Source: Gammaproteobacteria bacterium (GTDB lineage: Bacteria; Pseudomonadota; Gammaproteobacteria; QNFE01). Taken from it: a DNA stretch of 64,000 nt. The notes below the pieces were generated by a model. The model was not told the origin of the DNA and made no database searches. It saw only the letters and a program-made list of their open reading frames with translations. The stretch is from NCBI GenBank assembly GCA_003645455.1, contig QNFE01000005.1, positions 3,840 to 67,839 on the forward strand, written 5' to 3'. The position numbers and the translations under genes were made by a program. Positions 2,763 to 52,775 of the stretch are shown here, one piece after another (position 1 is the first letter of the stretch; each line of letters opens with the position of its first letter).

Positions 2763-3590
2763 TTATAACAAGTCGCCTCGTTTGAAGGTGATATACCCTA
2801 TTACAGCAGAAATTGTGCCTAAGATAAATGGATATACTATCGCCCAAATGAGATACATTGTATTACCGAAGGTATCTAAGATTAAAAAAGCCGCAGGACC
2901 TATCAAAACAAGCTGTGAGTCAAAAAGCATCATTGAGGCGGTTCTGAAAACTTGCAATGGATTTAAAAGTGCAATGGTTATAACGGTATTTGGCATTGAG
3001 GTTTGTTGCATTATCAAACCTAAGAAGATTAAATCTAATAATAATAGCAACAATAACCATAAGAAAAAAGCGAACCCCTGGGCGACATCAACAGATTTAG
3101 CAAGAGTTGAGATTAACATACTCAAGCCTAAAAAACACCAACTAAGTGAGATTAAAAAAGACGTGTAGAAAAAAAAGATTTTCCACGGAATGTCATAACC
3201 GCTAATCCCACCGATAATTATAACTGGCAACATAGCGACAAATACTGGGATAAAAACTGTAAAAAAACGCCCGATCATCTTGCCCCAAAACCAAGCCGAA
3301 AGTGACACCGGAAGCGACAATAAATATTCAAAAACTCCGGCTTCTTTGTCCCCTGCCAAAGATCGCACCGTGCTAATTAACACAAAAATTGGCATAATTG
3401 CCATTGAAAGTTGAATATATGTAATCAGTAATCTTGAAAGACCGGTAAAACCTGTAACTCTTGATTCGGTCAACCCAAAAGCAAATAACATAACCATTAA
3501 GCCACCGAACACCAAAGAATAAACCAAGAACCATTTAGCTCGGATTGATTCATTTATATCTAACAAACAGGTTTGGATAAGTTGTTTCAT
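2763..3590 (-). CDS. nosY: NosY, ABC transporter permease for NosZ maturation
   Basis: Multi-pass membrane protein with DKEAGVFEYLLSLP and LNPLQVFRTA; last gene of the nos cluster. Confidence 0.9.
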   Translation of the reverse strand: MKQLIQTCLLDINESIRAKWFLVYSLVFGGLMVMLFAFGLTESRVTGFTGLSRLLITYIQLSMAIMPIFVLISTVRSLAGDKEAGVFEYLLSLPVSLSAWFWGKMIGRFFTVFIPVFVAMLPVIIIGGISGYDIPWKIFFFYTSFLISLSWCFLGLSMLISTLAKSVDVAQGFAFFLWLLLLLLLDLIFLGLIMQQTSMPNTVITIALLNPLQVFRTASMMLFDSQLVLIGPAAFLILDTFGNTMYLIWAIVYPFILGTISAVIGYITFKRGDLL

Positions 3591-4072
3591 TATTTTTTGT
3601 CCTTTAAAAGTTTTTGCCTTTTTTGATATTCTTCTCTTGCTCTTTTTAAGTTATAAGCCTCTTTGGCGATTATACCTTCTATCATTTTTTGATAATTTAT
3701 TGTGTTTTTAGTCTCTTTTGTGCTTGCACTAAACCCAAACTCCATTGGGGTATGGTTTTCTTTGATATAAAATGCTTTTTTTGCATCTATCCATTTTGCT
3801 GTTTCGTGATCATTGACCCATATTTCAAAATTAGGATTACTTTTAATTTTTTTATTTTCCTGTAACCATAAAACAGCATCCCCTATATCATCAAATTTAT
3901 GGACTTTGTGTTTTGATATTCTAATTTGGGCTGAATGGTAGTGGTCTGATAGTGCCATTTTACAACGGACACAAATATCTCTATCCCACTTTACCTCCAC
4001 GGGTCCTGACTCTGGCACCTCACTACAAGAGAGCAAAAAAAATGCCGATAAGATTATAAAAATTCGTTTCAT
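3590..4072 (-). CDS. nosL: NosL, copper-binding lipoprotein
   Basis: Lipobox LLSC, CxxCxM motif (CVRCKM), FDDIGDA and TPMEFG motifs. Confidence 0.9.
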   Translation of the reverse strand: MKRIFIILSAFFLLSCSEVPESGPVEVKWDRDICVRCKMALSDHYHSAQIRISKHKVHKFDDIGDAVLWLQENKKIKSNPNFEIWVNDHETAKWIDAKKAFYIKENHTPMEFGFSASTKETKNTINYQKMIEGIIAKEAYNLKRAREEYQKRQKLLKDKK

Positions 4073-4920
4073 TTTTCTGTGAGTTGTATTTCTTTGAGAC
4101 TTGATGCATAACGCGACACAAGGCTTAAAAATTTTAACCTATCTGCCCCTGCTATCTCTCCTTTAAAAGTTATTCCATCTTGTGATTTTTTTAAATTCCA
4201 GTCAATCAAATTTTTAGCAAAACTATCTGTTTTTTTATTAAAAGTCAAAGTGCATAATAGTTTTTGTGCCATATCTACATTATCTGATACCATATCATCT
4301 AATATAATTATCCCTTGATCTAATTCAATTACTCTATTTACTAAGGAGGCGACCTCATCCAAACGATGAGATGATATTAACATTATTGTGTCTTGTGGTT
4401 TTTGAGCTAAGATTTTAAACAGGACTGCTCTGGCTTGTGGGTCTAAGTTTGCCGCAGGCTCATCCATAATTAAAATCGGACAATCTCTGCCAAGTGCTAT
4501 GGCTATTAATAGTTTTTGTTTTTGTCCGCCTGATAATTTGAAAAACGGCTGTTTTTTTATTGGCAAAACATCTAAACCTAAATCTTTTGCTATTTTTATT
4601 ATATGGCTCTCTTTTGTTTGAGATATTTTGGCTGAAAATTCAATCAATGAACCTACTGGCATTTTCAAAGGTGGTGGCAGTTGTGGCACAAAACCGATAT
4701 TTTTTAATACATCTGTGCGATGGTGTCTTGGGTGTTTTTTATCAATTGATACCTCACCATCATAGGTATATTCTCCTAAAATACAACGAATCAAGGTTGT
4801 TTTGCCTGCACCATTTGAACCAATTAAGGCGATTTTTTCACCTTTTTTTATGGACAAATCAAGTTCTTTTAAAATTTTATTTTTTTTAAAAGATTTTACT
4901 AATTTTTTAATTTCTATCAT
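4069..4920 (-). CDS. nosF: NosF, ABC transporter ATPase
   Basis: Walker A GSNGAGKT, signature LSGGQKQK, Walker B LIMDEP; lies between nosH and nosL. Confidence 0.9.
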   Translation of the reverse strand: MIEIKKLVKSFKKNKILKELDLSIKKGEKIALIGSNGAGKTTLIRCILGEYTYDGEVSIDKKHPRHHRTDVLKNIGFVPQLPPPLKMPVGSLIEFSAKISQTKESHIIKIAKDLGLDVLPIKKQPFFKLSGGQKQKLLIAIALGRDCPILIMDEPAANLDPQARAVLFKILAQKPQDTIMLISSHRLDEVASLVNRVIELDQGIIILDDMVSDNVDMAQKLLCTLTFNKKTDSFAKNLIDWNLKKSQDGITFKGEIAGADRLKFLSLVSRYASSLKEIQLTEK

Positions 4921-4984
4921 AGTTTTTTATCAATTATTATTGTTGTTGTTTCTGTTATTTCTTTTTTAATTGTTATTTTGTCAT

Positions 4985-6043
4985 TTATTTTTTATCAACT
5001 TTTATTTTTTGCTTATTATTTTTAGGCTCCGGATCATTACAGGGATATTTTTCACGACTAATACCTTTAAATTTAAAAGTGAGGCTATTAGTCGGGCATA
5101 TATCCACACAAGCACCGCAGCGAGTGCAGTCAGGACCCAATTCTTGGTTTTCGTTAAAACTGCGATTTTTAATTGTCCACTCTAATACGTGAGGCACAAG
5201 ACACACCTTGCGACAGTCTCCCTCGTGCAGGCAATCATTGATATTGTAATTTACCCGAAAAATTGAAAAAATCCCTACAAAACCATAAGTTAAACCAATC
5301 GGGCAAACATACCGACACCACATTCTACGAGAATATAAAATCTCAATCATCAATAGAAAGACAACCCATAACAATACAAAAGTAGGTCCATAAATCAAAG
5401 CACGGCTTAAAATTCCAGTCGGTGATATGACCTCAAACACGGTATAACCTGTTAAAAATGCTAATAACAAAAATACGATATAAAAAACAGTGCGAACCTT
5501 GCGGTTAAAAGCATGGTCTGATACTATTCCTTTTTGGGCTAATTTAAGATGAATAAACTCAGCAAATTCGGCTATCAGATGATAGGGACATACCCACGAG
5601 CAAAAAGTTCGCCCGCCAAAGATTATCCACATTATTAAAACTGTGACAAAACCTATGACTAAGTTTATTAAAATCATTTTTGAGGCAAGAGTTATTTGTA
5701 AAGCGGAGTTTAAATCTGCCATATGAAAACCCATAAATCTGGATGCAGTTAATGCACCCTCTAAGACACTCATATCAAAAAAATAAGAGACCACAAACAA
5801 TAGATTTATAAATAATAAAGTCCCCCAACGGCGGTTTCGCCATTTGTTTTTATTCTTGCGATTTTTTTCTTTGGCTTTTTCAGCCTTTAAGAGTTTAATG
5901 ACCTCTGCACCTTTGGGTTTGTTTTCATATATCTGGATTACTCTCTCACTGATATCATTTTTTAAGGTTTTGCTGACAGACTTGCCGAGCATCAAACCTA
6001 CACAATAAAAAAAACCTGGTTTTTTTTGTTTTTTATCGCTCAT
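4985..6043 (-). CDS. nosH: NosH, NapH/MauN-type membrane polyferredoxin (quinol dehydrogenase membrane subunit)
   Basis: GGRTFCSWVCP and WCRYVCPIG (CxxxCP) motifs plus a CTRCGACVDICP 4Fe-4S motif. Start placed at MSDKK (6043), which gives an ATGA overlap with the nosG stop. Confidence 0.88.
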   Translation of the reverse strand: MSDKKQKKPGFFYCVGLMLGKSVSKTLKNDISERVIQIYENKPKGAEVIKLLKAEKAKEKNRKNKNKWRNRRWGTLLFINLLFVVSYFFDMSVLEGALTASRFMGFHMADLNSALQITLASKMILINLVIGFVTVLIMWIIFGGRTFCSWVCPYHLIAEFAEFIHLKLAQKGIVSDHAFNRKVRTVFYIVFLLLAFLTGYTVFEVISPTGILSRALIYGPTFVLLWVVFLLMIEILYSRRMWCRYVCPIGLTYGFVGIFSIFRVNYNINDCLHEGDCRKVCLVPHVLEWTIKNRSFNENQELGPDCTRCGACVDICPTNSLTFKFKGISREKYPCNDPEPKNNKQKIKVDKK

Positions 6044-6834
6044 TTCTCGCTCCATTCTACTCTTTCATCAATAACAATAGCAGGCTCCGGCAATGGACAT
6101 ACCATCTCACACACACCACAACCAACACAACCTTGTAGAACTGTTGGCACATATCTGTTGTTATCTTTTTTTACTAATTCTATAGCTTTATATGGCGGAC
6201 ATTGATTTTTATCATTTTGTGGTGGTTTGCCTGCCTCACATTGCAAACGACGAATTTCAAGCGGACACAAACGCACACATAAATCACAAATTTCTAAATC
6301 ATAATCTTGACTATTTATTTCCAAAGGATTCCAGCGATCAATTTCATCAAATCTTAATTTGCCACTATAACCTTCCTCTCTGATTTTACCCTTAAAACCT
6401 TTTCCTGCTACAGCAAGACAGGTTTTAGGGCTTGATAATCTTGCCAAGCCCATTCTAGTATCTGGCACATAGTTTAAATCGTGAGTTAAAGAACCCGTAG
6501 GACAAGCTAACACACATTGCAAACCATCACAAGAGAAGTCACAAGCCTGAACACGAGCATCAATATATGGAACGCCTGATCCTTGTCCGTCAAAAATATC
6601 TCCCAGAAATATTGCCTCTACCGGACAAACTTGGACACATTGACCACATTTTATACAACTTGCCAGATATAATTTTTCATCCAAAGCCCCAGGTGGGCGA
6701 AGCCTTGGAGCTGAATTAGTTAGAGTGGGGATTAAAGCTGCCAAAGATATGCCCGTTACCGAAGTTGCCAAAACTGTTGTTCTTAAAAACTCTCGTCTTG
6801 CCTTCTCTGCTCGGTTTAGTTTTTTATCACTCAT
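6040..6834 (-). CDS. nosG: NosG, NapG/MauM-type periplasmic polyferredoxin
   Basis: Tat motif ARREFL, LRPPGA, and four Cys clusters (CIKCGQCVQVCP, CDFSCDGLQCVLACP, CDLCVRLCP, CVGCGVCEMVCP). Confidence 0.88.
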   Translation of the reverse strand: MSDKKLNRAEKARREFLRTTVLATSVTGISLAALIPTLTNSAPRLRPPGALDEKLYLASCIKCGQCVQVCPVEAIFLGDIFDGQGSGVPYIDARVQACDFSCDGLQCVLACPTGSLTHDLNYVPDTRMGLARLSSPKTCLAVAGKGFKGKIREEGYSGKLRFDEIDRWNPLEINSQDYDLEICDLCVRLCPLEIRRLQCEAGKPPQNDKNQCPPYKAIELVKKDNNRYVPTVLQGCVGCGVCEMVCPLPEPAIVIDERVEWSEK

Positions 6835-8066
6835 AATTTTGTTTTGTCTTTCTTAAAAGGTTTTTTATCTCTTAATAATAATCGTGGCTCTGAAAATGGT
6901 GCCAATCTCTCCAAAAAATCTAAAACCTCTAATACCGGAGTTGCTTTGAAAAATTTTGCCATTGGCACATCTGCCCATATTCTATCAGCATAACTATATA
7001 ACTCATATGGGGTATCGCCTATGTTGTCATTATTGTTGTCAAAACCTTGATAGTCGTCCCAATAATTGCCATCCCATTCATTTTTGGTAGCACCGCCATT
7101 GCCATTTACCATCACTTGATTAATATTAGATTTAAAAATATTGTTTGAAATTTTATTGCCCCACCATGGGCTGTGAAATAAAAAACCTACTCCATTGAAG
7201 GCTATGAGATTATCTTTGACGATATTAAATGTATCTGGTTGGAAGGGTGAGTTATCGCTGAATAATCCGGTGGCACAATATAAAATTTTATTGCCAATTA
7301 TTTTGGAATCTGATGTTTCTTTGATACCGATTCCCATCCCTGTGACCCCTTGTGAGTTTGCTATATAATTATTTTTTATGGTGACACTATCGCTATACAT
7401 TAAAAAAATACCAACCGAGCCACCAACATAATAATTGTTTTCAACCAAATTTTCTTGAGCATACATAAAATGCAGGGAATATCTGCCACCTGTGGTTTTA
7501 TTGCCTGAGATTACATTGCCTTTGCTATACCATACCACCATATCACGAGCTCCGGTTATGATATTGTCTTTAATTTGATTATCAAAACTATACCAAAGAC
7601 GAATGGAATCCCCCTTCATGCCAAGGCTATTTGCTGATTTTGAACTTATTTTGTTGCGTTTTATTATGTTGTTTTTGGCTTGCCCTAAATCAATACCAAA
7701 CAAACATTCATCAATTACAACATTTTTTATGACATTAAAATTGCCCCGAACCATAACCCCCGAGTCAAGATCGTTATGAGATTCGCCGGAATTAGTGAGC
7801 CTTATATTTTTGATTGTGACACCGTCTGTTTTGATATGAATAACAGAGCCTTTGCCACCGCCATCAATTATAACCTTATTTCTGCCATCAATGGTAATAG
7901 ATTTAGTGATAACAACAGGTCCTGCATATCTACCCGCCTTAGGGCTTATGACATCGCCTTTTTGTGCATTATCTATCAATTTTTGAAAAGATGGTAATTG
8001 TATTGCATTTGTTGTGTTTACAACAAAACACAAAATAACCATAGAAAAAAACTGCCATCTATTCAT
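6831..8066 (-). CDS. nosD: NosD, periplasmic beta-helix maturation protein
   Basis: Signal peptide, parallel beta-helix repeats, GDSIRLWYS, RYSLHFMY, GNYWDDYQGFD, GDTPY. Confidence 0.93.
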   Translation of the reverse strand: MNRWQFFSMVILCFVVNTTNAIQLPSFQKLIDNAQKGDVISPKAGRYAGPVVITKSITIDGRNKVIIDGGGKGSVIHIKTDGVTIKNIRLTNSGESHNDLDSGVMVRGNFNVIKNVVIDECLFGIDLGQAKNNIIKRNKISSKSANSLGMKGDSIRLWYSFDNQIKDNIITGARDMVVWYSKGNVISGNKTTGGRYSLHFMYAQENLVENNYYVGGSVGIFLMYSDSVTIKNNYIANSQGVTGMGIGIKETSDSKIIGNKILYCATGLFSDNSPFQPDTFNIVKDNLIAFNGVGFLFHSPWWGNKISNNIFKSNINQVMVNGNGGATKNEWDGNYWDDYQGFDNNNDNIGDTPYELYSYADRIWADVPMAKFFKATPVLEVLDFLERLAPFSEPRLLLRDKKPFKKDKTKL

Positions 8067-8068
8067 TT

Positions 8069-9268
8069 TTAATGATTTTCTTTATAGCGTAACAATGCCA
8101 TCAAAGCAGTTAAAACTGCAACTAACATTATTAAACCAAAACCGTAGTCCGGATAGGAGTAGGTGGCAAACTGGGCTACTTTACCAACCCCAAAAACTGT
8201 TGGCATAAAAGGCTTAACGGTAAATGCTCCAAATTCTGACAAATTATGACCAAACCAATATAACCAACCGGCATAATCAGCCACAAAGAAAACTGGCAAC
8301 ATCATAGGCACTATAATAAGCAACCAGTAAATTTGTTTATATTTTAGCCCGCCTATAACAAGCAATAAAATAGCAAAAACTAATCCTGCAAAAACGACAA
8401 TCGTAGCATTTTTGATGATCTCAACTCGTTTGACATCTGGGATTGAATCTGTATGAGCAAACTTATCACAGGCTTGCATAAAATCTTTTTGAATTACATC
8501 AGTAGTTATATTGTCTTTATTTTTGAATTTTTTATATGTTTTGCTAAACACTCCCATTAATGCAGGATTATCCACCCCATTAGCACTTAAAACATCATTA
8601 AGGCTTAAAAATTCTTTATTTTGTGAGCTATATAATTTTAGATATTTCATTAGAGGTTCATATTTTTCACACTTTACTTCAACTGTGGGGAAGTATCGTG
8701 CCAAGGATTCGGCATAACTTCTTTGTATAACTTCTAATCCTGTTAGGTGATGCACTTCATTATCATCCAAATCCATCGTAGTTTGCACATCATTGAGATA
8801 TGGTGAAGATTGCATCTCTGCTCCGCCTTCGGTGAATAAAACCATAGTTGCCCACAGAATTATCAAACTTCCTGTCGACCCTAACCATATAGTTCGATAT
8901 TTTTTATCGGTCATTATAAAGCCTATAATCATAACCGCCAATAAGGCAAATATAAAAGGAGACATAGCTCGTTCCACAGGAGCTCCTGCGGCAATTGGAT
9001 ACATTCCTACATAATGGTTAATAGCATCCATCTCATGTTTGCAATTTAAAGCCTCATCTTCGGTAAGTTCAGCGGATTTAACCTTAGTGCAGCCGTTAAA
9101 TACTCCATTGACATGAAAATTAATCTTAATGCCGTCAGGAAAAGCTACTTCTGGATATTGGGGGGCTGTTAGGGATACCCACCAAACAGGGGAGAAGAAA
9201 ATAAAAAATAGGAGTGCAACTGCACTAGTTCCAAGCGAAGCTATAATAATATTTTGTTTTTTAAGCAT
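8069..9268 (-). CDS. nosB: NosB, clade II nos membrane protein
   Basis: WWVSLTAPQYPE...PDGI, HEMDAINHYVGM, WLYWFGHNL and PFMPTVFGVGKVAQFATYSYP motifs; sits between the cytochromes and nosD. Confidence 0.8.
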   Translation of the reverse strand: MLKKQNIIIASLGTSAVALLFFIFFSPVWWVSLTAPQYPEVAFPDGIKINFHVNGVFNGCTKVKSAELTEDEALNCKHEMDAINHYVGMYPIAAGAPVERAMSPFIFALLAVMIIGFIMTDKKYRTIWLGSTGSLIILWATMVLFTEGGAEMQSSPYLNDVQTTMDLDDNEVHHLTGLEVIQRSYAESLARYFPTVEVKCEKYEPLMKYLKLYSSQNKEFLSLNDVLSANGVDNPALMGVFSKTYKKFKNKDNITTDVIQKDFMQACDKFAHTDSIPDVKRVEIIKNATIVVFAGLVFAILLLVIGGLKYKQIYWLLIIVPMMLPVFFVADYAGWLYWFGHNLSEFGAFTVKPFMPTVFGVGKVAQFATYSYPDYGFGLIMLVAVLTALMALLRYKENH

Positions 9269-9318
9269 AGTGTATAATTTTAAAAATAATATTTATTACG
9301 AATAAAATAAAGATACAA

Positions 9319-9350
9319 AAAAAACAAGGGGCAAAAACCCCTTGTTTTTT
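9319..9350 (-). terminator. Rho-independent terminator-like hairpin between nosC2 and nosB
   Basis: 13 bp stem aaaaaacaagggg / ccccttgtttttt with a 6 nt loop, immediately after the nosC2 stop; T-tract on both strands. Confidence 0.7.
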
Positions 9351-9365
9351 ATAGGATTAGATTTT

Positions 9366-10112
9366 TTAATCGTAATCAGGGTTTTGCCATCCTACTGGTG
9401 CTACATCTTTTTTAGGGACTGGGATGCGCGAGGCATAGTTAATAACCATCGCCATATCTGCATCAGAGAAACCTTTGATTTGTTTAACCATATCAGGATT
9501 TGCATTACGACGTTTACCGTCTCTAATCCATTCAAACTGGCGAATCATATAACTATAATGTTGTCCGACAATCTTAGGATAAAATTTAATCGCATCACCT
9601 TCACCTGCTTTACCGTGACATTCAGTGCAATTATCATCATAAAGTTTTTTACCCTTGACAAATTCAGGAGTGCCTTTGGCCCATTTACCTTTGTGATTAT
9701 TAGGGTTCATTTTTAATTTTGCAATGTAGTCGGTAACATCTGCCATAGCCTGCTCGTCACCGATAGATTCTGGCAAGGCAAAAGGATACATCGTAGGGTT
9801 ATCGCGATTTAATGCCCTAATATCGGCAAGTTGCTTGATTAAGACCGAGCGATGTTGCCCTGCAAGTTGCGGAAATGTGCCATCTACTGTACCCCAGCCT
9901 TCCAACAAATGACAAGCCGAGCATACTTCATAAACCTCAATGCCATTTTTTTTATCAGCTTTTAGATGCATAGCTTTATCAGTCTCACCTGAATGAGTTG
10001 TGTCGCTCCAAACTTTTACATCCGTTGCCTGTTTAGTGCTTTTATCAGCATACGATGAACTTACTGAAAGCAAAAATAAAACTGACAAAATTATTGATAT
10101 ATTTTTTTTCAT
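9366..10112 (-). CDS. Di-heme c4-type cytochrome (NosC2-like)
   Basis: Signal peptide; two CxxCH motifs (CSACH, CTECH); FPQLAGQH and YPKIVGQH; within the nos cluster. Confidence 0.88.
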   Translation of the reverse strand: MKKNISIILSVLFLLSVSSSYADKSTKQATDVKVWSDTTHSGETDKAMHLKADKKNGIEVYEVCSACHLLEGWGTVDGTFPQLAGQHRSVLIKQLADIRALNRDNPTMYPFALPESIGDEQAMADVTDYIAKLKMNPNNHKGKWAKGTPEFVKGKKLYDDNCTECHGKAGEGDAIKFYPKIVGQHYSYMIRQFEWIRDGKRRNANPDMVKQIKGFSDADMAMVINYASRIPVPKKDVAPVGWQNPDYD

Positions 10113-10137
10113 AATATTTACCTTTTAAAAAATTTAA

Positions 10138-10752
10138 TTATTTTAAAGTAGCCAACCAAGTAGCTATCTCCTCTATTTGCTTGTCATCAACAAGTCCCAT
10201 TACACCTTTCATAGCAGCGGATTGTCCGTTTGCTCTTTTGCCAGACTTTATATCTTTCATTTGATTTAGAATATACTCTTTGCTTAACCCTGTAAGATTA
10301 GGATAGATTGGTAAAATTGGAGTTTTAGCATCCTTACCATGACAAGACCAACAAGTCTTTTCTTGGAACAACTTTGCACCACCTGTTAATGCTTCTTTTG
10401 CTTTTGGAGCAGCAGTGGCAGTTTTTGCAGGAGCAGTAGATGCTATCCAAGCTGCAATCTCATCAATTTGTTTGTCATCTAATAATCCCATAAAACTTTG
10501 CATCGCAACAGAGTGTCCATTCTTTCTTTTACCAGATTTAATATCTTTCATTTGAGCAGATATGTATTCCTTTTTTTGATTCGCTAAACTTGGATAAATC
10601 GGTAAAACTGGAGTTTTTGCATCTTTGCCGTGACAAGACCAACAAGCATTGACATTATCTTGAAATAATTTTTCGCCGTCAGCTAAGACAAGATTAGAAA
10701 ATGCGACAGATGTTAACAGGCTTGTCGCTATAAGTGTAATTTTTACTTTCAT
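10138..10752 (-). CDS. Di-heme cytochrome c made of two tandem near-identical domains (NosC1-like)
   Basis: Signal peptide; two CWSCH motifs, each followed by YPxL...QMKDIKSGKR...AM; Ala/Thr/Lys/Pro-rich linker. Confidence 0.88.
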   Translation of the reverse strand: MKVKITLIATSLLTSVAFSNLVLADGEKLFQDNVNACWSCHGKDAKTPVLPIYPSLANQKKEYISAQMKDIKSGKRKNGHSVAMQSFMGLLDDKQIDEIAAWIASTAPAKTATAAPKAKEALTGGAKLFQEKTCWSCHGKDAKTPILPIYPNLTGLSKEYILNQMKDIKSGKRANGQSAAMKGVMGLVDDKQIEEIATWLATLK

Positions 10753-44181: not shown

Positions 44182-45280
44182 ATGAAAGAATCTAATCAGA
44201 TAAAAAATCAATTATTAAACATAAAAGAGCAAACCGCCAAACTTCGGCGGTTGCTTTGACTATGATGGCAAAAAAAACCAGTTAGAAGAGGTATGTTTAG
44301 AATTAGAGTTGCCCAACCTATACAAAAACCCTAAAAAAGCACAATCTCTCAACAAACAACATAGTTACCTATTAAAAATCACCAACAATATTGACAAATT
44401 AAAAGAAGATTCGGACAATAACTTAGAATTATTAAAAATGGCAGTAGATGATAATGATGATATGGCGATTAAAACATTATCAGACGACACCAATAATTTA
44501 AAAAAAATTATTGATGATTTGGAATTCAATAGAATGTTTTGCCACCCTAATGATGAATGCCATGCTTTTTTAGATATTCAAGCAGGATCGGGGGGCACAG
44601 AGGCATGCGACTGGGCTCAAATGTTGTTAAGAATGTATCTAAGATGGGGCGAGAGCCATAAATTTAAAACAGAAGTATTAGAGGCACAGTCAGGAGATGT
44701 CGCGGGGTTAAAAAGTGCGACCATCCACCTCAAAGGGGATTATGCTTTTGGTTGGTTGAGAACAGAAACCGGAGTACACAGATTAGTGCGAAAATCACCA
44801 TTTGATTCTGGCAACCGTCGCCATACCTCTTTTGCATCCGTGTTTGTTTCACCTGAAATATCAGATGATATAGAAATTGACATCAACCCTGCTGATTTAA
44901 GAATAGATGTATATCGTGCATCAGGTGCAGGAGGACAACACATCAACAAAACAGAAAGTGCGGTGCGAATAACCCACAAACCCACAGAGACAGTGGTTCA
45001 GTGCCAAAACGATAGGTCACAGCATAAAAATAAAGCGGCGGCCATGAAACAGTTAAAAGCAAAATTATACGAATTAGAAAAACAAAGACAAAACCAAGAG
45101 ATCCAAAAAACAGAAGATAGTAAATCTGATATAGGATGGGGATCACAGATTAGATCCTATGTTTTGGATCAATCTCGGATAAAAGATTTGAGAACAAAAG
45201 AAGAGAATACCAACACAGGAGCAGTTTTAGATGGCGATTTGGATTCATTTTTAATCGCTAGTTTAAAAATGCAAGTTTAA
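44182..45280 (+). CDS. prfB: Peptide chain release factor 2, with programmed +1 frameshift
   Basis: ATG at 44182 reads in frame to CTT TGA C (44254-44260); the +1 frame continues [12 protein letters not shown] into the tracked ORF with GGTEA, SPF and GGQ motifs. Confidence 0.95.
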
Positions 45281-45289
45281 TATCTATTA

Positions 45290-45385
45290 GAGACCTTTGT
45301 ATAACTCAAGCACAATTTATAACAACAATAAAATGCACCTATTTTCTTATTATCCTAAATCGCACTTGAGTTATACAAAGGTCTC
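45290..45385. mobile_element. 96 bp MITE-like element with GAGACCTTTG termini, between prfB and lysS
   Basis: Perfect 21 bp terminal inverted repeat gagacctttgtataactcaag, extendable to 26 bp with the flanks tatta/taata. The interior cacaatttataa...aaaatgcacct is shared with the 13428 copy. Confidence 0.8.
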
Positions 45386-45417
45386 TAATAATTTTTAGAA
45401 AAATAACGGAAAATAAA

Positions 45418-46899
45418 ATGGCAGAAGAAAATAAACTAGTCTCTATAAGACGAGAAAAATTAAACATTTTACGCCAACAAGGTGTGGCATATAACAATAA
45501 CTTCAAACCCCTAAATGAAGTTGCCCTATTGCACGAACTATATGACAATAAAACCAAAGAAGAACTCTCAATTTTAGCTGCCAAAATATCCGTTGCGGGA
45601 CGAATTATTGCTACAAGAATGATGGGGAAAGCAAGTTTTATTTCTTTGTTGGATGATGACACGGAGATTCAAATTTATATCCAAAAAGACAACATAGGAG
45701 AGAATAACTATATCAATTTTAAAACAGACGACATAGGAGACATTGTAGGAGTCGTTGGCGAAATTTTTAAAACTAATAAAAATGAGCTCTCAATCCGAGC
45801 AGAATCCTATCAGTTGCTAAGCAAATCTTTGCATCCATTACCAGAGAAATTTCACGGATTAACAGACACAGAACAAAAATACCGCCAAAGATATGTCGAT
45901 TTAATCATCAATGAAAAAACTCGCCAAACTTTCAAAAATAGAGTTAAAATCATCAACGGCATTCGTAATTATTTTAACAACTTAGATTTTATGGAAGTTG
46001 AAACTCCGATGATGCATACTCAACCAGGAGGGGCTACGGCTTGTGCTTTTGAAACCCATCACAATGCGATGAATATGCCTCTATACCTGAGAATCGCTCC
46101 GGAATTATTTTTAAAAAGACTTATAATTGGTGGATTTAATCGTGTATATGAGATAAATCGTAGTTTTCGCAATGAAGGGGTATCAAAAAAACACAATCCA
46201 GAATTTACAATGATAGAGTTTTATCAAGCCTATGCCACCTATGAAGATTTAATAACTCTAACCGAAGATCTTTTAAAAAATCTTTGTCAATTAGTTCACA
46301 ATAAACTACAATTTATAAACAATAATATTAAATATGATTTTTCTAAAAAATTTGCAAGAAAAACATTAAAACAAATAATCAAAGAATATAATCCAAAACT
46401 TGAAAATATTAATAACTTTGATAATGTTTTATCCTATGTCAAATCAATCGGCATAAGACCTGAAAAAAACTGGGGATTAGGAAAGTTACAATTTGAAATT
46501 TTTGAAAAAACAGTAGAGGATAATTTAATTCAACCCATATTCATCACAGAATATCCTACCGAAGTATCACCCTTAGCCCGAAAAAATGACAAAAATCCAG
46601 ACATAACTGACAGATTTGAATTTTTTGCAGGAGGAGTTGAGATTGCTAATGGTTTTTCAGAATTAAACGACCCAGAAGATCAGGCAAGAAGGTTTATGGC
46701 GCAGGTTGCCAACAAAAAAGCAGGAGATGATGAGGCTATGAGTTATGATAAGGACTACATCACAGCTTTGGAATATGGAATGCCCCCCACCGCAGGAGAG
46801 GGAATAGGAATTGATAGATTAGTTATGTTATTAACCGATCAACAAACCATAAAAGATGTAATTCTATTCCCTCATATGAAAAACCAAAACTCAATATGA
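45418..46899 (+). CDS. lysS: Lysine--tRNA ligase
   Basis: MGKASF, YRQRYVDL, FMEVETP, YLRIAPEL, FRNEG, HNPEFT, GIGIDRL. Confidence 0.97.
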   Translation: MAEENKLVSIRREKLNILRQQGVAYNNNFKPLNEVALLHELYDNKTKEELSILAAKISVAGRIIATRMMGKASFISLLDDDTEIQIYIQKDNIGENNYINFKTDDIGDIVGVVGEIFKTNKNELSIRAESYQLLSKSLHPLPEKFHGLTDTEQKYRQRYVDLIINEKTRQTFKNRVKIINGIRNYFNNLDFMEVETPMMHTQPGGATACAFETHHNAMNMPLYLRIAPELFLKRLIIGGFNRVYEINRSFRNEGVSKKHNPEFTMIEFYQAYATYEDLITLTEDLLKNLCQLVHNKLQFINNNIKYDFSKKFARKTLKQIIKEYNPKLENINNFDNVLSYVKSIGIRPEKNWGLGKLQFEIFEKTVEDNLIQPIFITEYPTEVSPLARKNDKNPDITDRFEFFAGGVEIANGFSELNDPEDQARRFMAQVANKKAGDDEAMSYDKDYITALEYGMPPTAGEGIGIDRLVMLLTDQQTIKDVILFPHMKNQNSI

Positions 46900-46915
46900 G
46901 ACCTTTGATAATAAA
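46898..46915. repeat. Isolated terminus of the GAGACCTTTG element overlapping the lysS stop
   Basis: t|gagacctttgataat: the TGA stop of lysS is formed with the first two bases of the element end. Confidence 0.55.
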
Positions 46916-46937
46916 ACTCTACATTTTTATAAAAACA

Positions 46938-46946
46938 TGCTATAAT
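46938..46946 (+). promoter_or_regulatory. Extended -10 promoter candidate for rsxA-nifJ
   Basis: TGcTATAAT ends 27 bp upstream of the rsxA ATG. Confidence 0.4.
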
Positions 46947-46973
46947 TGATATTTTTTGTAAATATCGCTGCAA

Positions 46974-47549
46974 ATGACTGATTACATATTGATTCTAATC
47001 GGCACAATTTTTGTTAACAACATTGTATTAGCAAAATTTTTAGGCCTATGTCCTTTTATGGGTGTGTCACGAAAATTAGAAACCGCAGCTGGAATGGGTT
47101 TTGCTACCACTTTTGTGCTGACATTATCTGCCATCCTATCCTATCTTGTTAATGAATATTTGCTTATTCCGCTTGAAATTGAATATTTAAAAACTATCAG
47201 TTTTATTTTAGTAATTGCTGTTGTTGTGCAATTCACTGAAAGTTTTATCCGCAAAACTTCTCCAGTTTTATATAGTGTTTTGGGAATTTTTTTGCCACTT
47301 ATTACAACTAATTGTGCGGTGTTGGGGGTGGCTTTATTAAATGCTCAACAATCGCACAATTTATTGGAATCAGCTTTATATGGTTTTGGGTCGGCTTTGG
47401 GGTTTACTTTTGTTTTAGTTTTATTTGCTGCTATTCGCGAAAGATTATCCGCATCTGATGTGCCGGTGCCTATGGTAGGTACCGCTATCGCACTTATCAC
47501 AGCAGGTTTAATGTCGGTAGCTTTTATGGGTTTTTCTGGATTAATATAA
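46974..47549 (+). CDS. rsxA: Rnf/Rsx electron transport complex subunit A
   Basis: [47 protein letters not shown]. Confidence 0.95.
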
Positions 47550-50500
47550 TGAATAAAAAATATATGACTATTGATGGTAATGAGGCAGTATCTTATGTCT
47601 CATATGCTTTTACCGAAGTAGCAGGAGTATACCCTATTACACCTGCCTCTCCTATGGGAAGTTTGGCAGAAATTTGGAGCTCGCAAGGTAAAACTAATTT
47701 GTTTGGCACAAGTGTAAAAATAGTTGAGATGCAGTCTGAGGCAGGGGCTGCAGGAGTCTTTCACGGCTCATTGCAAATAGGGGCGATGACTACGACTTAT
47801 ACTGCCTCACAAGGTTTATTATTAAAAATCCCCAATATGTATAAGGTGGCAGGACAACTTTTGCCAGGTGTCATTCATGTCTCGGCAAGATCAATCGCAG
47901 CTCATGCTTTATCAATTTTTGGCGACCATCAAGATGTTATGAGTGTTCGTGCCACAGGTTTTGCGATGCTTGCCACAGGCTCTGTGCAACAGGTAATGGA
48001 TCTATCAGGCATAGCCCACCTTGCCTCTCTTAAAAGTAAAGTCCCATTTTTACATTTTTTTGATGGCTTTCGCACCTCCCACGAGATAAATAAAATTGAA
48101 AGTTTTGATTATAAAGATTTTGATAAATTGCTTGATAAAAAAGCCTTGCAAGAGTTTCGGGATAATTCATTAAACCCTGAATCTCCGACAACTCGTGGTT
48201 CGGCCCAAAATGATGATATATATTTTCAAGGACGCGAAGCCTGCAACCCATTTTATGAAGCAGTGCCTGATATAGTCAATGATTATATGATAGAGATATC
48301 AAAAATAACAGGTAGGGAATATGCCCCGTTTACTTTTTATGGTGCAACCGATGCCACAGATATAATAATCGCTATGGGCTCTGTGACAGAAACCATCAAA
48401 GAAACAATTGATTACTTACAAAAAAAAGAAGGTAGGAAAGTAGGACTTATCAGTGTTCATCTTTATCGTCCATTTTCTTTAAAATATTTTTTTAATGTCT
48501 TGCCTAAAAGCACAAAAAAAATATGTGTAATTGATCGCACCAAAGAACCAGGTAGCCTAGCAGAGCCCTTATATTTAGACATAAAAGCTGCTATCTACAA
48601 TAACGACTTTCACCCTATGATTATTGGAGGCAGATATGGTTTATCTTCAAAAGATGTGCCGCCGAACCAAATTATTGCCCTCTATGATAATCTTGCATCC
48701 AATCAACCAAAGGATAATTTCACAGTCGGCATAAATGACGATATCTCTCATACCTCAATCTCTGTCGGAGAAAATATATCCATTAAAACTGATGATGTTA
48801 AAGAGTGTTTGTTTTATGGCATAGGTGCAGATGGCACAGTCGGTGCCAATAAAAACTCGGTTAAAATAATCGGCGAGAAAACAGATCTTTACGCTCAGGC
48901 ATATTTTGCCTATGATTCTAAAAAATCAGGTGGCTTCACGAGATCTCATTTAAGATTTTCACCGCGTCCTATCCGTTCAACTTATTTGGTATCAAATCCT
49001 GGTTTTGTCGCCTGCTCCAAAGAGATTTATTTAGAACAATATGAAATGATAGATAACTTAAAACAGGGCGGAACTTTTTTATTAAATTCAATTTGGCAAC
49101 CAGATAAATTGATTGAAAAAATGCCAGAGAGAGTTAAAAAAATTCTCGCCGAGAAAAAAGCAAAATTCTACACCATAAATGCTACCAAAATAGCCGAAGA
49201 TATCGGGCTTGGCAATCGCACAAATACTATAATGCAATCGGCTTTTTTTAAGTTATCAGGCGTTATTGATTATCATAAAGCTATAGATTATATGAAAGAA
49301 TATGCCAAAAAAGCTTATTCTAAAAAAGGAGTTGATATGGTGGGAATGAATTATAAAGCCATTGATATGGGAGCCGATGCGATTCAAGAGATAGAAGTTA
49401 AAGAGCAATGGTTAAAATTTGAATCAAGTGATTTAATTTTGGATGAAACCTATCAAGGCACAGAATATGTTGAAAATTTTGCCAAGATTGTCAATGCCGG
49501 ACAAGGCAACAATTTACCAGTTTCAATATTTAAAGGAGCAGAGGGCGGATTTTTAGAAAACGGTAGCACCAAATATGAAAAGCGAGGAATAGGTTTAACA
49601 GTCCCTAAATTTTTACAAGAGCATTGCATTCAATGTAATCAGTGTATTTTAGACTGCCCTCATGGCTGTATGCGCGCTTTTTTGTTGAATAAAGATGAAT
49701 ATAATGCAGCCCCTGACGGAGTTAAAAATCACTGCATAGATGTCTCGGGCAAAGGCTTGAAAGAAATAGGCTTGAAATATGTAATTTCAACCTCAATTTT
49801 AGACTGCACGGGGTGTAACATATGTGTCGATGTTTGCCCTACAAAAATAAAATCATTAGAAATGGTGCCATTCGCCGAAGAAGATGAGCAAGGCGCGCAA
49901 CAAGATGCAGATTATTTATACAGCAAAGTAACCTACAAAGATGATTTAATCTCAAAAGATACAATTCGTGGTTCACAATTTGCTCAACCACTTTTTGAAT
50001 TTAACTCCGCCTGCCCAGGTTGTGGCGAAACACCATATATAAAACTTGTCACTCAATTGTTTGGCGATCGAACAATAATAGCCAATGCGACAGGTTGTTC
50101 GTCAATTTTTGGTGGATCTGCACCCTCAACTCCATATACAACCAACGATAAAGGTGAGGGACCTGCCTGGGCAAATTCCCTGTTTGAAGATGCCGCAGAG
50201 TTTGGTTTTGGGATGTTACAAGCGAACAACACTATCCGTAATCGTTTGGAAATGTTAATGTTAAACAACAAAAATAAAGTCGCCAAACCCTTGGGCGACT
50301 TATTTAATCAATGGTTGGAACATAAAGAAAATGGCATTCAAACTCAAAAACTAAAAAATCTAATTTTGCCATTATTAAAGAAAGAAAATAACAACAAAGA
50401 TATGGCAACAATTTTAAGCCTAAAACAATATCTTGTCAAAAAATCACAATGGGTGATAGGTGGTGATGGTTGGGCATATGATATAGGATACGGTGGTTTG

Positions 50501-51124
50501 GATCATGTCATCTCCACAGGAGAAAACATAAATTTATTAGTCTTAGATACCGAAGTGTACTCCAACACCGGCGGACAAAGCTCCAAAGCATCAAGAACTG
50601 GCTCAATAGCAGAATATACCAACTCTGGCAAAATATCACCAAAAAAAGATTTAGGATATATAGCTATGACTTACGGTCATGTATTTATTGCCCAGATAAA
50701 CTCTCGCGCCCGTGCAAAACAGACGATGGAGGTAATAAGAGATGCTGAAAAATTTGATGGACCATCTTTAATTATCGCCTACTCTCCTTGTATATCTCAC
50801 GGCATCAAAGGCGGTTTGATGGCATCAGTAGACCAAGGTAAACTTGCCACCGAGTGTGGATATTGGCCGTTATATACCTATAATCCAGACCTTATCAAAG
50901 ATGGTAAAAACCCCATCAAATTATTTGGCAAACCACCAGCATGGGATAGATATAAAGATTTTTTAAATCAAGAAAATCGTTATGTAAATTTAAAAAAATC
51001 AAACCCAGAAAAAGCGGAAGAATTATTTGACCTTAACAAAAAAGAGGCACAATTTAGATACCGTCAATTAAAAAGAATGGCAAGTGCGGATTATAGCAAC
51101 GAGATACAATCTGACCCAACATAA
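47549..51124 (+). CDS. nifJ: Homodimeric pyruvate:ferredoxin/flavodoxin oxidoreductase
   Basis: DGNEA, YPITPAS, EMQSEAGAAG, HFFDGFRTSHE, GIGADGTVG, two ferredoxin motifs (CIQCNQCILDCP, CTGCNICVDVCP), ACPGCGE, GDG..YDIG TPP site. Confidence 0.95.
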   Translation: MNKKYMTIDGNEAVSYVSYAFTEVAGVYPITPASPMGSLAEIWSSQGKTNLFGTSVKIVEMQSEAGAAGVFHGSLQIGAMTTTYTASQGLLLKIPNMYKVAGQLLPGVIHVSARSIAAHALSIFGDHQDVMSVRATGFAMLATGSVQQVMDLSGIAHLASLKSKVPFLHFFDGFRTSHEINKIESFDYKDFDKLLDKKALQEFRDNSLNPESPTTRGSAQNDDIYFQGREACNPFYEAVPDIVNDYMIEISKITGREYAPFTFYGATDATDIIIAMGSVTETIKETIDYLQKKEGRKVGLISVHLYRPFSLKYFFNVLPKSTKKICVIDRTKEPGSLAEPLYLDIKAAIYNNDFHPMIIGGRYGLSSKDVPPNQIIALYDNLASNQPKDNFTVGINDDISHTSISVGENISIKTDDVKECLFYGIGADGTVGANKNSVKIIGEKTDLYAQAYFAYDSKKSGGFTRSHLRFSPRPIRSTYLVSNPGFVACSKEIYLEQYEMIDNLKQGGTFLLNSIWQPDKLIEKMPERVKKILAEKKAKFYTINATKIAEDIGLGNRTNTIMQSAFFKLSGVIDYHKAIDYMKEYAKKAYSKKGVDMVGMNYKAIDMGADAIQEIEVKEQWLKFESSDLILDETYQGTEYVENFAKIVNAGQGNNLPVSIFKGAEGGFLENGSTKYEKRGIGLTVPKFLQEHCIQCNQCILDCPHGCMRAFLLNKDEYNAAPDGVKNHCIDVSGKGLKEIGLKYVISTSILDCTGCNICVDVCPTKIKSLEMVPFAEEDEQGAQQDADYLYSKVTYKDDLISKDTIRGSQFAQPLFEFNSACPGCGETPYIKLVTQLFGDRTIIANATGCSSIFGGSAPSTPYTTNDKGEGPAWANSLFEDAAEFGFGMLQANNTIRNRLEMLMLNNKNKVAKPLGDLFNQWLEHKENGIQTQKLKNLILPLLKKENNNKDMATILSLKQYLVKKSQWVIGGDGWAYDIGYGGLDHVISTGENINLLVLDTEVYSNTGGQSSKASRTGSIAEYTNSGKISPKKDLGYIAMTYGHVFIAQINSRARAKQTMEVIRDAEKFDGPSLIIAYSPCISHGIKGGLMASVDQGKLATECGYWPLYTYNPDLIKDGKNPIKLFGKPPAWDRYKDFLNQENRYVNLKKSNPEKAEELFDLNKKEAQFRYRQLKRMASADYSNEIQSDPT

Positions 51125-51173
51125 TATTCTATTGATGCTTGTATCTTGATTTATTTGTTCGTGGTTTGAGGTT

Positions 51174-52307
51174 TTAACCTATCTCTTTATCGGTTAAATA
51201 ACAACCAGGATCTTCTGCCCATGCATCATTATATTCTATGTATGCACGAGTGCGAGTGTTACCATCGCATATTTTTTTGTAAGAACAAGTATAACACCTG
51301 CCCTTAACAGGGCGAGGTTTTTGTTTTAACCCTGCCATAAGAGGATCACTTACATCCTGCCAAATTTCTGAAAATTCTCTATCTTTTACATTCCCTAAAT
51401 TATAATTCCACCACATTGTATCAGGATGAACCTGTCCTGTGTTGTCAATGTTTGAGATATTTATCCCAGAACTATTACCTGCCCATTGTTCTAATTTTTG
51501 CCTGACATGTTCTGCTGATTTTGGATAATTTTTTTTTACCCATAAATATAAATAGACACCGTCTGCATCATTATTGCCAGTTACAAATTCTTTGTTGTTC
51601 TTATTGAGGTTATCAATACAGGTTGAGAATAATAAATCAAGAGATTCACGAGTAGTTTTAAATTCAGCAATATCGGCACGATTTTTGCTGCCTCGTCCTG
51701 CAAAATTTAAATGAGAATAGTAAAATTTATCAACCCCTTCGTCATCCATAAGTTGCAACATATTTTTAAGTTGATTTTGGTTGTCGGTAGTTTGAGTAAA
51801 ACGCAACCCCACCTTAATGTTGTTTTTTTTGCACAACCTTATTCCGTTGATTGATTCTTGATAAGCACCTTCTTTTTGGCGAAATACATCATGAGTTGCC
51901 TGCACTCCATCAATACTTATTCCTAAATAATCAAAACCTATGTCTGTTATTTGCTTGATATTTCTATCTGTAATTAGTGTCCCATTGGTAGATAGAGCCG
52001 TATAGAAACCCATATTTTTAGCGCGTCTTGCAATTTTAAATATATCATCTCGCAAAAGTGGCTCGCCACCAGAGAGAATTAGAACCGGAACTTTAAAATT
52101 TTTTAAATCATCCATGGTTTTAAAAACTTGTGCTGTGCTTAATTCTCCTTTAAAGTTTGTATCTGCGGAGATTGAATAACAGTGTTTACAGGTTAAATTA
52201 CAACGCCGAATAAGATTCCAAATCACAACAGGTCCTAGTGGATTTTTTATAGGACTGATGGGGATGGGATTTTTTATCTCTTGCAAAATTTTATTTATTC
52301 TTAACAT
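51174..52307 (-). CDS. nirJ: Heme d1 biosynthesis radical SAM protein NirJ
   Basis: GPVVIWNLIRRCNLTCKHCYS, LSGGEPL, GNSSGINISNID..G.VHPD and a SPASM C-terminus (CYTC..KKICDGNTR, EDPGCYL). Confidence 0.85.
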   Translation of the reverse strand: MLRINKILQEIKNPIPISPIKNPLGPVVIWNLIRRCNLTCKHCYSISADTNFKGELSTAQVFKTMDDLKNFKVPVLILSGGEPLLRDDIFKIARRAKNMGFYTALSTNGTLITDRNIKQITDIGFDYLGISIDGVQATHDVFRQKEGAYQESINGIRLCKKNNIKVGLRFTQTTDNQNQLKNMLQLMDDEGVDKFYYSHLNFAGRGSKNRADIAEFKTTRESLDLLFSTCIDNLNKNNKEFVTGNNDADGVYLYLWVKKNYPKSAEHVRQKLEQWAGNSSGINISNIDNTGQVHPDTMWWNYNLGNVKDREFSEIWQDVSDPLMAGLKQKPRPVKGRCYTCSYKKICDGNTRTRAYIEYNDAWAEDPGCYLTDKEIG

Positions 52308-52775
52308 TTAAAACCTCATTCCTGTTTTTTTTAAGATTCTTTTGCTAAATAAAATATCATATTTATTTTTATCTATACCAAACTCAAGAGCAATTTGATA
52401 AACTTTTTGCCAAACTTTATCTTTGCAGGTAGCATGAATCATTGCAAAAATATTATACTGCCATATATCCTTATGGCGTGGTCGCAGATAACAGTGGCTT
52501 ATATCGTTATTTTTTGCTAATTCTTTACCAAATTCATCAGCAAAATTATCATCTATATTCCATACAGACATACCATTTGCCATGATACCAAGTTTGTAAT
52601 GATTGGGGACGGCTCCAATGCGGCGAATTTGTTGATTTTGGAGCATTTTTTGAAACTCAGTAATTACAGATAACTCATCAATATCAAGTTTGTAAGCAAC
52701 CTCATCATAGGGGTTTTTTACAAGAGGCAGACCAGATTGTGTTTCTTTAATAATTTTTTTTTGAAATTGATTCAT
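52308..52775 (-). CDS. nirH: Siroheme decarboxylase subunit, NirH-like (Lrp/AsnC fold)
   Basis: GLPLVKNPY, IRRIGAVPNHYKLG, ANGMSVW, SHCYLRPR, W.YNIFAMIH, KKTGMR; immediately upstream of nirJ. Confidence 0.78.
   Translation of the reverse strand: MNQFQKKIIKETQSGLPLVKNPYDEVAYKLDIDELSVITEFQKMLQNQQIRRIGAVPNHYKLGIMANGMSVWNIDDNFADEFGKELAKNNDISHCYLRPRHKDIWQYNIFAMIHATCKDKVWQKVYQIALEFGIDKNKYDILFSKRILKKTGMRF

Follow-up and report, generated by a model that had tools for sequence, protein, structure and literature searches.

A Campylobacterota-type pyruvate:ferredoxin oxidoreductase gene overlapping rnfA in a gammaproteobacterium with a split rnf gene set

The canonical Rnf complex is encoded by one run of six genes, rnfABCDGE or rsxABCDGE, as in the rsx operon of Escherichia coli and the rnf1 operon of the Solemya velum symbiont. 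In Prevotella, Rnf takes electrons back from ferredoxin and forms NADH, and a chain from pyruvate:ferredoxin oxidoreductase (PFOR) through ferredoxin to Rnf is established in anaerobes (PMC10542786). The closest described arrangement is the rnf2 operon of the Solemya velum gill symbiont, rnfB-PFOR-rnfCDGEA, for which pyruvate was proposed as the electron donor of Rnf (Dmytrenko et al. 2014, PMC4287430). Here we describe a locus on a 64,000-nucleotide stretch of DNA (the window, C5:3840-67839, from contig QNFE01000005.1 of assembly GCA_003645455.1) from an uncultured marine, sulfur-oxidising gammaproteobacterium, whose metagenome-derived assembly has 2.06 Mb in 83 contigs, 33% GC and 98% completeness. 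In this window rnfA overlaps a PFOR gene, here called PFOR1, and the other rnf genes lie elsewhere in the genome. We found no description in the literature of an rnfA-PFOR pair or of an rnf set split three ways. With moderate confidence, we propose that a foreign PFOR behind rnfA has replaced pyruvate dehydrogenase (PDH), with Rnf re-oxidising the ferredoxin to NADH.

The locus consists of two open reading frames (ORFs) on the same strand, with products of 191 and 1191 amino acids (Table 1). As the earlier note on this DNA had pointed out, the stop codon of rnfA overlaps the start codon of PFOR1; in the junction GGA TTA ATA TAA TG, the last A of the stop TAA (47547-47549) is also the first base of the ATG (47549-47551). 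Such a stop/start overlap is the mark of a translationally coupled pair, and coupled translation is predicted from it. Counted from this ATG, PFOR1 has an N-terminus as long as those of its Campylobacterota homologues. The search for terminators found no convincing one between the two genes and none after PFOR1. The best promoter candidate for the pair, with 10 of 12 consensus matches, lies inside the 74-bp spacer between lysS and rnfA.

Like the rnf2 operon, this locus places a PFOR gene among rnf genes in a sulfur-oxidising gammaproteobacterium. However, rnf2 has the order BCDGEA with the PFOR gene between B and C, whereas PFOR1 stands behind the rnfA of an ABCDGE-type set whose other genes are unlinked. 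The genome has one rnfA and one rnfE, and its rnfB and rnfC overlap directly, so that an rnf2-type layout is not present. PFOR1 is of standard length and Campylobacterota origin, a source different from that of the rnf2 PFOR. The two joinings look like independent events, and the one described here looks like a lineage-restricted variant. Compared with the canonical operon, all six subunits are likewise encoded with scores above the NCBIfam cut-offs, but the genes are in three places and a PFOR gene replaces rnfB after rnfA. The proposed electron path, including ion translocation, is the same as in the PFOR-ferredoxin-Rnf chain of Prevotella, acetogens and clostridia. In these anaerobes the PFOR and Rnf genes are not overlapping neighbours, whereas here they overlap, and the host is a Calvin-cycle sulfur oxidiser and not a fermenter.

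RnfA is intact and of full length. It scored 316.3 bits against NF003481 (cut-off 240), with residues 1-191 aligned to a model of 193 positions, and 205 bits against PF02508, covering model positions 2-174 of 174. Its closest named relatives are gammaproteobacterial (74-80% identity). Two conserved cysteines common to RnfA and to RnfE/NqrD/NqrE are the Fe-S ligands at the A/E interface in the published Nqr and Rnf structures; the corresponding motifs are GLCPFMG and TTNCAVLG in this RnfA and GLCPLLA and VTNCVIIG in the RnfE of the same genome.

The earlier note had called this rnfA an orphan, which holds for the window but not for the genome. The window contains no other Rnf gene, and the genome has exactly two genes of the Rnf-Nqr family, rnfA and the rnfE on contig C18. 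On the same contig, 4.7 kb downstream of rnfE and beyond a porin-like gene, rmuC, serS and a tsaC-like gene, rnfB, C, D and G follow one another with overlapping junctions. All are intact, with scores (cut-offs in brackets) of 239 (203) for RsxB, 604 (345) for RsxC, 366 (207) for RnfD, 219 (178) for RsxG and 281 (184) for RsxE. Thus the genome encodes a complete Rnf of A, B, C, D, G and E, and the complex is split, not lost; the suggestion that the incoming PFOR had replaced the rest of the rnf operon is not supported as far as it implied a loss. Because neither Nqr genes nor a second rnfA were found in the genome, this rnfA must serve the complex encoded on C18. The contiguous rnfABCDGE layout is absent, its genes being in three pieces, of which the one on C5 is rnfA followed by PFOR1. 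In 20 genomes of the same class, the order rnfA-rnfB-rnfC was kept at all 26 of the rnfA-type loci, including that of G001, the sole genome of the same order, and the three-way split is therefore derived. Synteny with G001 was uninformative, the counterparts of the neighbouring genes all being on different contigs of the present genome. Two of the rnf pieces lie directly behind translation genes of the same strand, rnfE after rplU-rpmA with a gap of 317 bp and rnfA after prfB-lysS with the gap given above.

PFOR1 is a full-length single-chain enzyme, with a score of 1713.6 bits against TIGR02176 (cut-off 911) and the full Pfam series POR_N, PFOR_II, POR, EKR, 2x4Fe-4S and TPP_C. Residues 1-1181 align with the solved PFOR structures 6CIN, 7PLM and 1B0P. 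In an alignment listed to residue ~1004, the Fe-S and thiamine pyrophosphate (TPP) motifs CIQCNQCILDCPH, CTGCNICVDVCP, ACPGCGETPY, ATGCSSI and GGDGWAYDIGYGGLDH correspond to those of the M. thermoacetica enzyme; the TPP motif GGDGWAYDIG and the motif of the third cluster are also in place. Of two peptides that the earlier note took for Campylobacter/Arcobacter-type signatures, GLLLKIPNMYKVAGQLLP is present as described, and RYRQLKRMASADYSNE occurs near the C-terminus but is not terminal, the protein continuing with IQSDPT.

The assignment to that type was itself borne out. The best named relatives of PFOR1 belong to Arcobacter, Halarcobacter, Malaciobacter, Marinarcus, Sulfurospirillum and Campylobacter (64-70% identity), and to the single-chain PFORs of Arcobacteraceae, Sulfurospirillum and Campylobacter, for instance the Campylobacter POR, identity is 64-71% at full length. 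In a maximum-likelihood tree, PFOR1 and the PFOR of one related organism, described below, form a clade that is sister to Arcobacteraceae and lies inside the Campylobacterota-type clade, in which rows from metagenomes are assumed to be Campylobacterota. Support was 99-100 by the Shimodaira-Hasegawa-like approximate likelihood-ratio test (SH-aLRT) in a 57-row tree, and 100/100 (bootstrap/SH-aLRT) at both nodes in a more careful 37-row tree; for one row of the latter, L162, an incorrect ORF of the locus had been included (branch length 10); it is to be disregarded and left the nodes of interest untouched. Forcing PFOR1 outside the Campylobacterota-type clade cost 70 log-likelihood units (approximately unbiased test, AU p 0.024). 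Klebsiella NifJ and E. coli YdbK share family TIGR02176 and the domain order with PFOR1, but are only 45% identical to it and branch far from it, across the tree. In an evenly drawn set of 400 genomes of the class, 65 others had a full-length PFOR, all of them 42-48% identical to PFOR1. Judged from these relationships, PFOR1 is foreign and of Campylobacterota (Arcobacter) type. Its GC content and its GC content at third codon positions (GC3) equal those of the host genes, so the transfer is likely to be old. A PFOR gene 71% identical to PFOR1, on a JGI metagenome contig (L087, 3300062115, positions 3445-10431), is flanked by rve-type integrase and Transposase_mut genes, which suggests that PFORs of the Arcobacteraceae type can travel on mobile DNA.

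The pair is not peculiar to one genome. A 14-kb contig (L066) from another metagenome, derived from a related organism, carries the two genes in the same order, with identities of 91% for RnfA and 80% for PFOR, and its RnfA was the only one more than 80% identical to ours among 5.8 billion proteins. The junction there is an ATGA overlap instead of TAATG, and the overlapping ATG is the sole candidate for the PFOR start. The flanks are different, with acpP-fabF upstream and coaBC-dapD downstream on the opposite strand; orthologues of these flanking genes are on other contigs of the present genome (57-94% identity). Between the two pairs the synonymous substitution rate (dS) is saturated at >2, and the ratio of nonsynonymous to synonymous rates (dN/dS) is 0.028 for rnfA and 0.072 for PFOR1, values that indicate strong purifying selection on both genes. 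Because of these ratios, the saturated dS and the changed flanks, we consider that both genes are functional and that they have remained overlapped although the two lineages diverged long ago and the DNA on either side was rearranged. The idea of a conserved rnfA-PFOR unit is supported by this second organism. In a wider survey of loci with related PFORs, ~63 from genomes and 31 from metagenomes, no adjacent rnfA was seen; at one Christensenellaceae locus an rnfA lies 5 kb upstream. None of the Campylobacterota PFOR loci examined has rnfA nearby. Here the host is a gammaproteobacterium, and the partner must be a ferredoxin, since no flavodoxin was found.

The metabolic setting gives the arrangement a plausible meaning. 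No pyruvate dehydrogenase E1 of the AceE or PdhA type was found in the genome. Of 40 relatives, 30 have AceE, among them G001, which has a canonical rnfABC and no PFOR; by gene content, the loss of PDH, the gain of PFOR and the split of rnf are all placed on the branch of the present genome relative to G001. The genome has RuBisCO, 2-oxoglutarate dehydrogenase (sucAB-lpd), sdhAB, gltA and sucCD. Since the E1 component was not found, PFOR appears to be the route from pyruvate to acetyl-CoA, and because carbon from the Calvin cycle must reach acetyl-CoA without PDH, PFOR would have to run at least in the oxidative direction. A 2[4Fe-4S] ferredoxin of the YfhL type is encoded. No flavodoxin gene was found in the genome, so PFOR1 must reduce a ferredoxin, and flavodoxin was dropped as a candidate carrier.

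Two other roles were considered for PFOR1 and rejected. A part in nitrogen fixation, as for NifJ, was rejected because nitrogenase genes were not found; the search gave no true nifH, and the best match to Fer4_NifH scored 43 bits, contains a stop codon and, from its low score, looks like a ParA/MinD-type protein. The reductive tricarboxylic acid cycle, one of the uses that the earlier note had offered, is not supported either. The genome has RuBisCO instead, and no 2-oxoglutarate:ferredoxin oxidoreductase similar to KorA or PorA was found in it by a search that did match in other genomes. There is one SucC and one SucD homologue and no extra SucC/SucD-like gene that could be an ATP-citrate lyase (ACL); a search with the ACL family PF16114 gave no matches, its controls being silent too.

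There is a second PFOR in the genome, and its setting resembles that of PFOR1. PFOR2, on contig C29, is of gammaproteobacterial type, 45% identical to PFOR1 and 50% to E. coli YdbK, and it groups with YdbK and the PFORs of Gammaproteobacteria. Its start is overlapped by the stop of a gene for a GltD-like NAD(P)-binding Fe-S flavoprotein (NF009410, 724 bits). Each of the two PFOR genes of this genome is therefore immediately preceded by a gene whose product may re-oxidise ferredoxin. A relative, G002, has the same GltD-like-PFOR2 pair, with 57% identity in the flavoprotein.

We suggest the following course of events. An AT-rich, sulfur-oxidising and CO2-fixing ancestor would have gained a single-chain PFOR from a Campylobacterota donor near Arcobacteraceae, and the incoming gene would have come to rest directly behind rnfA, in the usual position of rnfB. 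Later the rnf operon would have been scattered, with rnfA-PFOR1 behind prfB-lysS, rnfE behind rplU-rpmA and rnfBCDG as a third piece, but with all six genes left intact, so that Rnf would still be made. PFOR1 would be transcribed from the promoter before rnfA and translated by ribosomes that finish rnfA and re-initiate at the overlap. PFOR1 and PFOR2 would together form the apparent pyruvate-to-acetyl-CoA route, and electrons would pass from pyruvate to ferredoxin, to Rnf and then to NAD+, with ions being pumped. In an oxygen-poor, denitrifying niche, PFOR and Rnf may thus do the work of PDH and conserve some extra energy.

Several points weigh against this proposal. The pair was seen in two organisms only, and its conservation is that of a single comparison. 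The sequencing runs that contain the stretch are DNA runs only. We infer the co-transcription of the pair, as we do its coupled translation and the path and direction of the electrons. The promoter candidate is a consensus match only, and such sites occur in the region at about the frequency expected after shuffling. No clear Shine-Dalgarno sequence was found before the PFOR1 start, and translation could instead begin at another ATG, 15 nt further downstream. With 83 contigs at 98% completeness, the absence of PDH is likely but short of certain. PFOR2 with its GltD-like partner could carry the main flux. Finally, the direction of PFOR and Rnf is not readable from the sequence; pyruvate oxidation is favoured.

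The direction is what the best of the alternatives turns on. Driven by the ion gradient, Rnf could pass electrons from NADH to ferredoxin, and PFOR1 would then act as a pyruvate synthase, joining acetyl-CoA and CO2 in a mixotrophic assimilation of acetate; the two directions could also alternate with conditions. PFOR is a reversible enzyme. The genome encodes an acetyl-CoA synthetase (61% identical to E. coli Acs) and a phosphoenolpyruvate synthetase (ppsA, 61%), and a glyoxylate shunt was not found, malate synthase A being missing and the sole isocitrate-lyase-like match being weak (25%). Moreover, with its RuBisCO, this cell already relies on reverse electron flow to fix CO2. Nevertheless, in the absence of PDH the oxidative direction is needed anyway for acetyl-CoA from Calvin-cycle carbon, and the POR of Campylobacter jejuni and close Campylobacterota homologues are pyruvate-oxidising. 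We consider the reverse direction somewhat unlikely.

It is also conceivable that the adjacency has no meaning. The PFOR gene may have captured a resident promoter, the overlap would then be hard to separate, and the electrons would go mainly to other acceptors. The genome has undergone heavy rearrangement and contains many miniature inverted-repeat transposable elements (MITEs), a close PFOR homologue lies between transposase genes, none of ~95 PFOR loci, of the Campylobacterota type or other, had an adjacent rnfA, and the pair was seen in two related organisms only. However, the pair persisted although its flanks changed on both sides and dS reached saturation. Rnf is, besides the GltD-like flavoprotein paired with PFOR2, the sole recognisable enzyme of the genome that moves electrons between ferredoxin and pyridine nucleotides, and a PFOR-rnf linkage arose independently elsewhere (PMC4287430). 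We consider an adjacency without functional meaning improbable.

A stronger version of our proposal is that PFOR1 has become a peripheral protein dedicated to Rnf, synthesised at the membrane beside nascent RnfA and docking to RnfB or RnfC, in a supercomplex that acts as a pyruvate:NAD+ oxidoreductase. We regard this as speculative and improbable. If it were true, pyruvate oxidation would be channelled into ion pumping, the arrangement would be an independent second invention of a PFOR within rnf, and each PFOR of the cell would be hard-wired to its own ferredoxin re-oxidiser, PFOR2 to the GltD-like protein.

That the junction is an artefact of a chimeric contig or a binning error, or that rnfA is a decaying relic, is very improbable: the assembly is a metagenomic one of many contigs, and in a second run (X2, a marine metagenome) identical fragments of both genes occur with no contig across 47308-47559, so that X2 gives no independent support for the join, but a 19.9-kb contig made by an independent assembler (Logan, from a sediment metagenome run) covers 46000-52000 at an even depth of 15.7 with zero differences, the L066 pair comes from a different sample and organism, PFOR1 has a host-like GC3, and rnfA is of full length, above its equivalog cut-off and has the low dN/dS given above. 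Mis-assembly was ruled out on the strength of the Logan contig and the L066 pair. The earlier note had named three outcomes as fatal to its idea, namely a grouping of PFOR1 with the gammaproteobacterial NifJ/YdbK enzymes, a mis-assembled junction and the absence of rnfB to rnfE from the genome, and none of them was found.

If our proposal is right, the locus documents a rebuilt pyruvate node in a low-oxygen, Calvin-cycle sulfur oxidiser, in which PDH was lost, a PFOR was gained from Campylobacterota that share the habitat, and its gene was joined to that of one subunit of the cell's sole ferredoxin:NAD+ ion pump. Together with the published rnf2-PFOR operons, it would be a second, independent joining of PFOR and rnf, and would strengthen the view that pyruvate-ferredoxin-Rnf is a selected module outside the classical anaerobes. 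It also indicates that the genes of a functional Rnf can lie apart at three loci, a point of importance for automated pathway calls based on a single operon. With an uncultured organism and only two known examples, the practical reach is limited. What we describe is not a new kind of system but a case of horizontal transfer in which an operon was remodelled, and for which a metabolic rationale is plausible; as PFOR genes within rnf operons have been published in another form, its novelty is modest.

Table 1. Features of the rnfA-PFOR1 locus and related genes of the same genome. Positions are those of the window unless a contig (C) is named.
Feature	Position	Strand	Details
Full MITE copy	45289-45385		Fills the prfB-lysS spacer
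prfB-lysS with rnfA	44309-47549		rnf piece behind translation genes
Degenerate single MITE end (terminal inverted repeat)	46897..46911	-	Directly after the lysS stop
Candidate sigma-70-like promoter	46918..46946	+	TCTACA, 17-nt spacer, TATAAT, TG before the -10; 28 bp 5' of the rnfA start
rnfA/rsxA	46974..47549	+	PF02508, NF003481; sole A subunit gene of the genome; intact, full length, gammaproteobacterial type
TAATG stop/start overlap, rnfA/PFOR1	47547..47551	+	One shared base
PFOR1, single-chain pyruvate:ferredoxin oxidoreductase	47549..51124	+	Arcobacteraceae-like (Campylobacterota) origin; TIGR02176, Pfam domains, tree
Radical-SAM and NirD/L-like genes	51174-52775	-	NirD/L-like gene of siroheme decarboxylase type; both converge on the PFOR1 end
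rplU-rpmA with rnfE	C18:4258-5959		rnf piece behind translation genes
rnfE	C18:5333-5959		Upstream of rnfBCDG
rnfB, C, D, G	C18:10695-14358		Overlapping junctions
GltD-like gene and PFOR2	C29:4367-9708		Overlapping pair
PFOR2	C29:6133-9708		Gammaproteobacterial type
RuBisCO	C2:62595-64034		
YfhL-type 2[4Fe-4S] ferredoxin	C2:28195-28443		
Indolepyruvate oxidoreductase beta subunit	C17:23806-24396		NF005322, 249 bits

The MITEs belong to an abundant family whose terminal inverted repeats resemble GAGACCTTTGCATAATTCAAGC. We counted 386 of its ends across the genome, compared to 5 when the sequence was reversed as a control, and 118 elements with paired ends, which fall into sizes of about 70, 97 and 160 bp. 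On C18 the rnfBCDG piece also has single ends on both sides, before rnfB and after rnfG, and the one before rnfA may be a trace of rearrangement. As a cause of the rnf split, MITE ends were tried and not accepted, since they occur at three of the six boundaries of the rnf pieces, compared to 17% of intergenic gaps in the whole genome, a difference that is non-significant (p ~0.07).

Elsewhere in the genome, a gene for the beta subunit of indolepyruvate oxidoreductase stands alone, with no adjoining ORF of at least 100 amino acids fit to be the alpha subunit, iorA. Around the pair, Pfam matches identified rpsA, prfB and lysS on the 5' side and, on the opposite strand of the 3' side, a radical-SAM gene, a NirD/L-like gene, rplQ and rpoA. 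The radical-SAM and NirD/L-like genes are consistent with the biosynthesis of heme d1 or with an alternative route to heme, which would accord with a denitrifying way of life.

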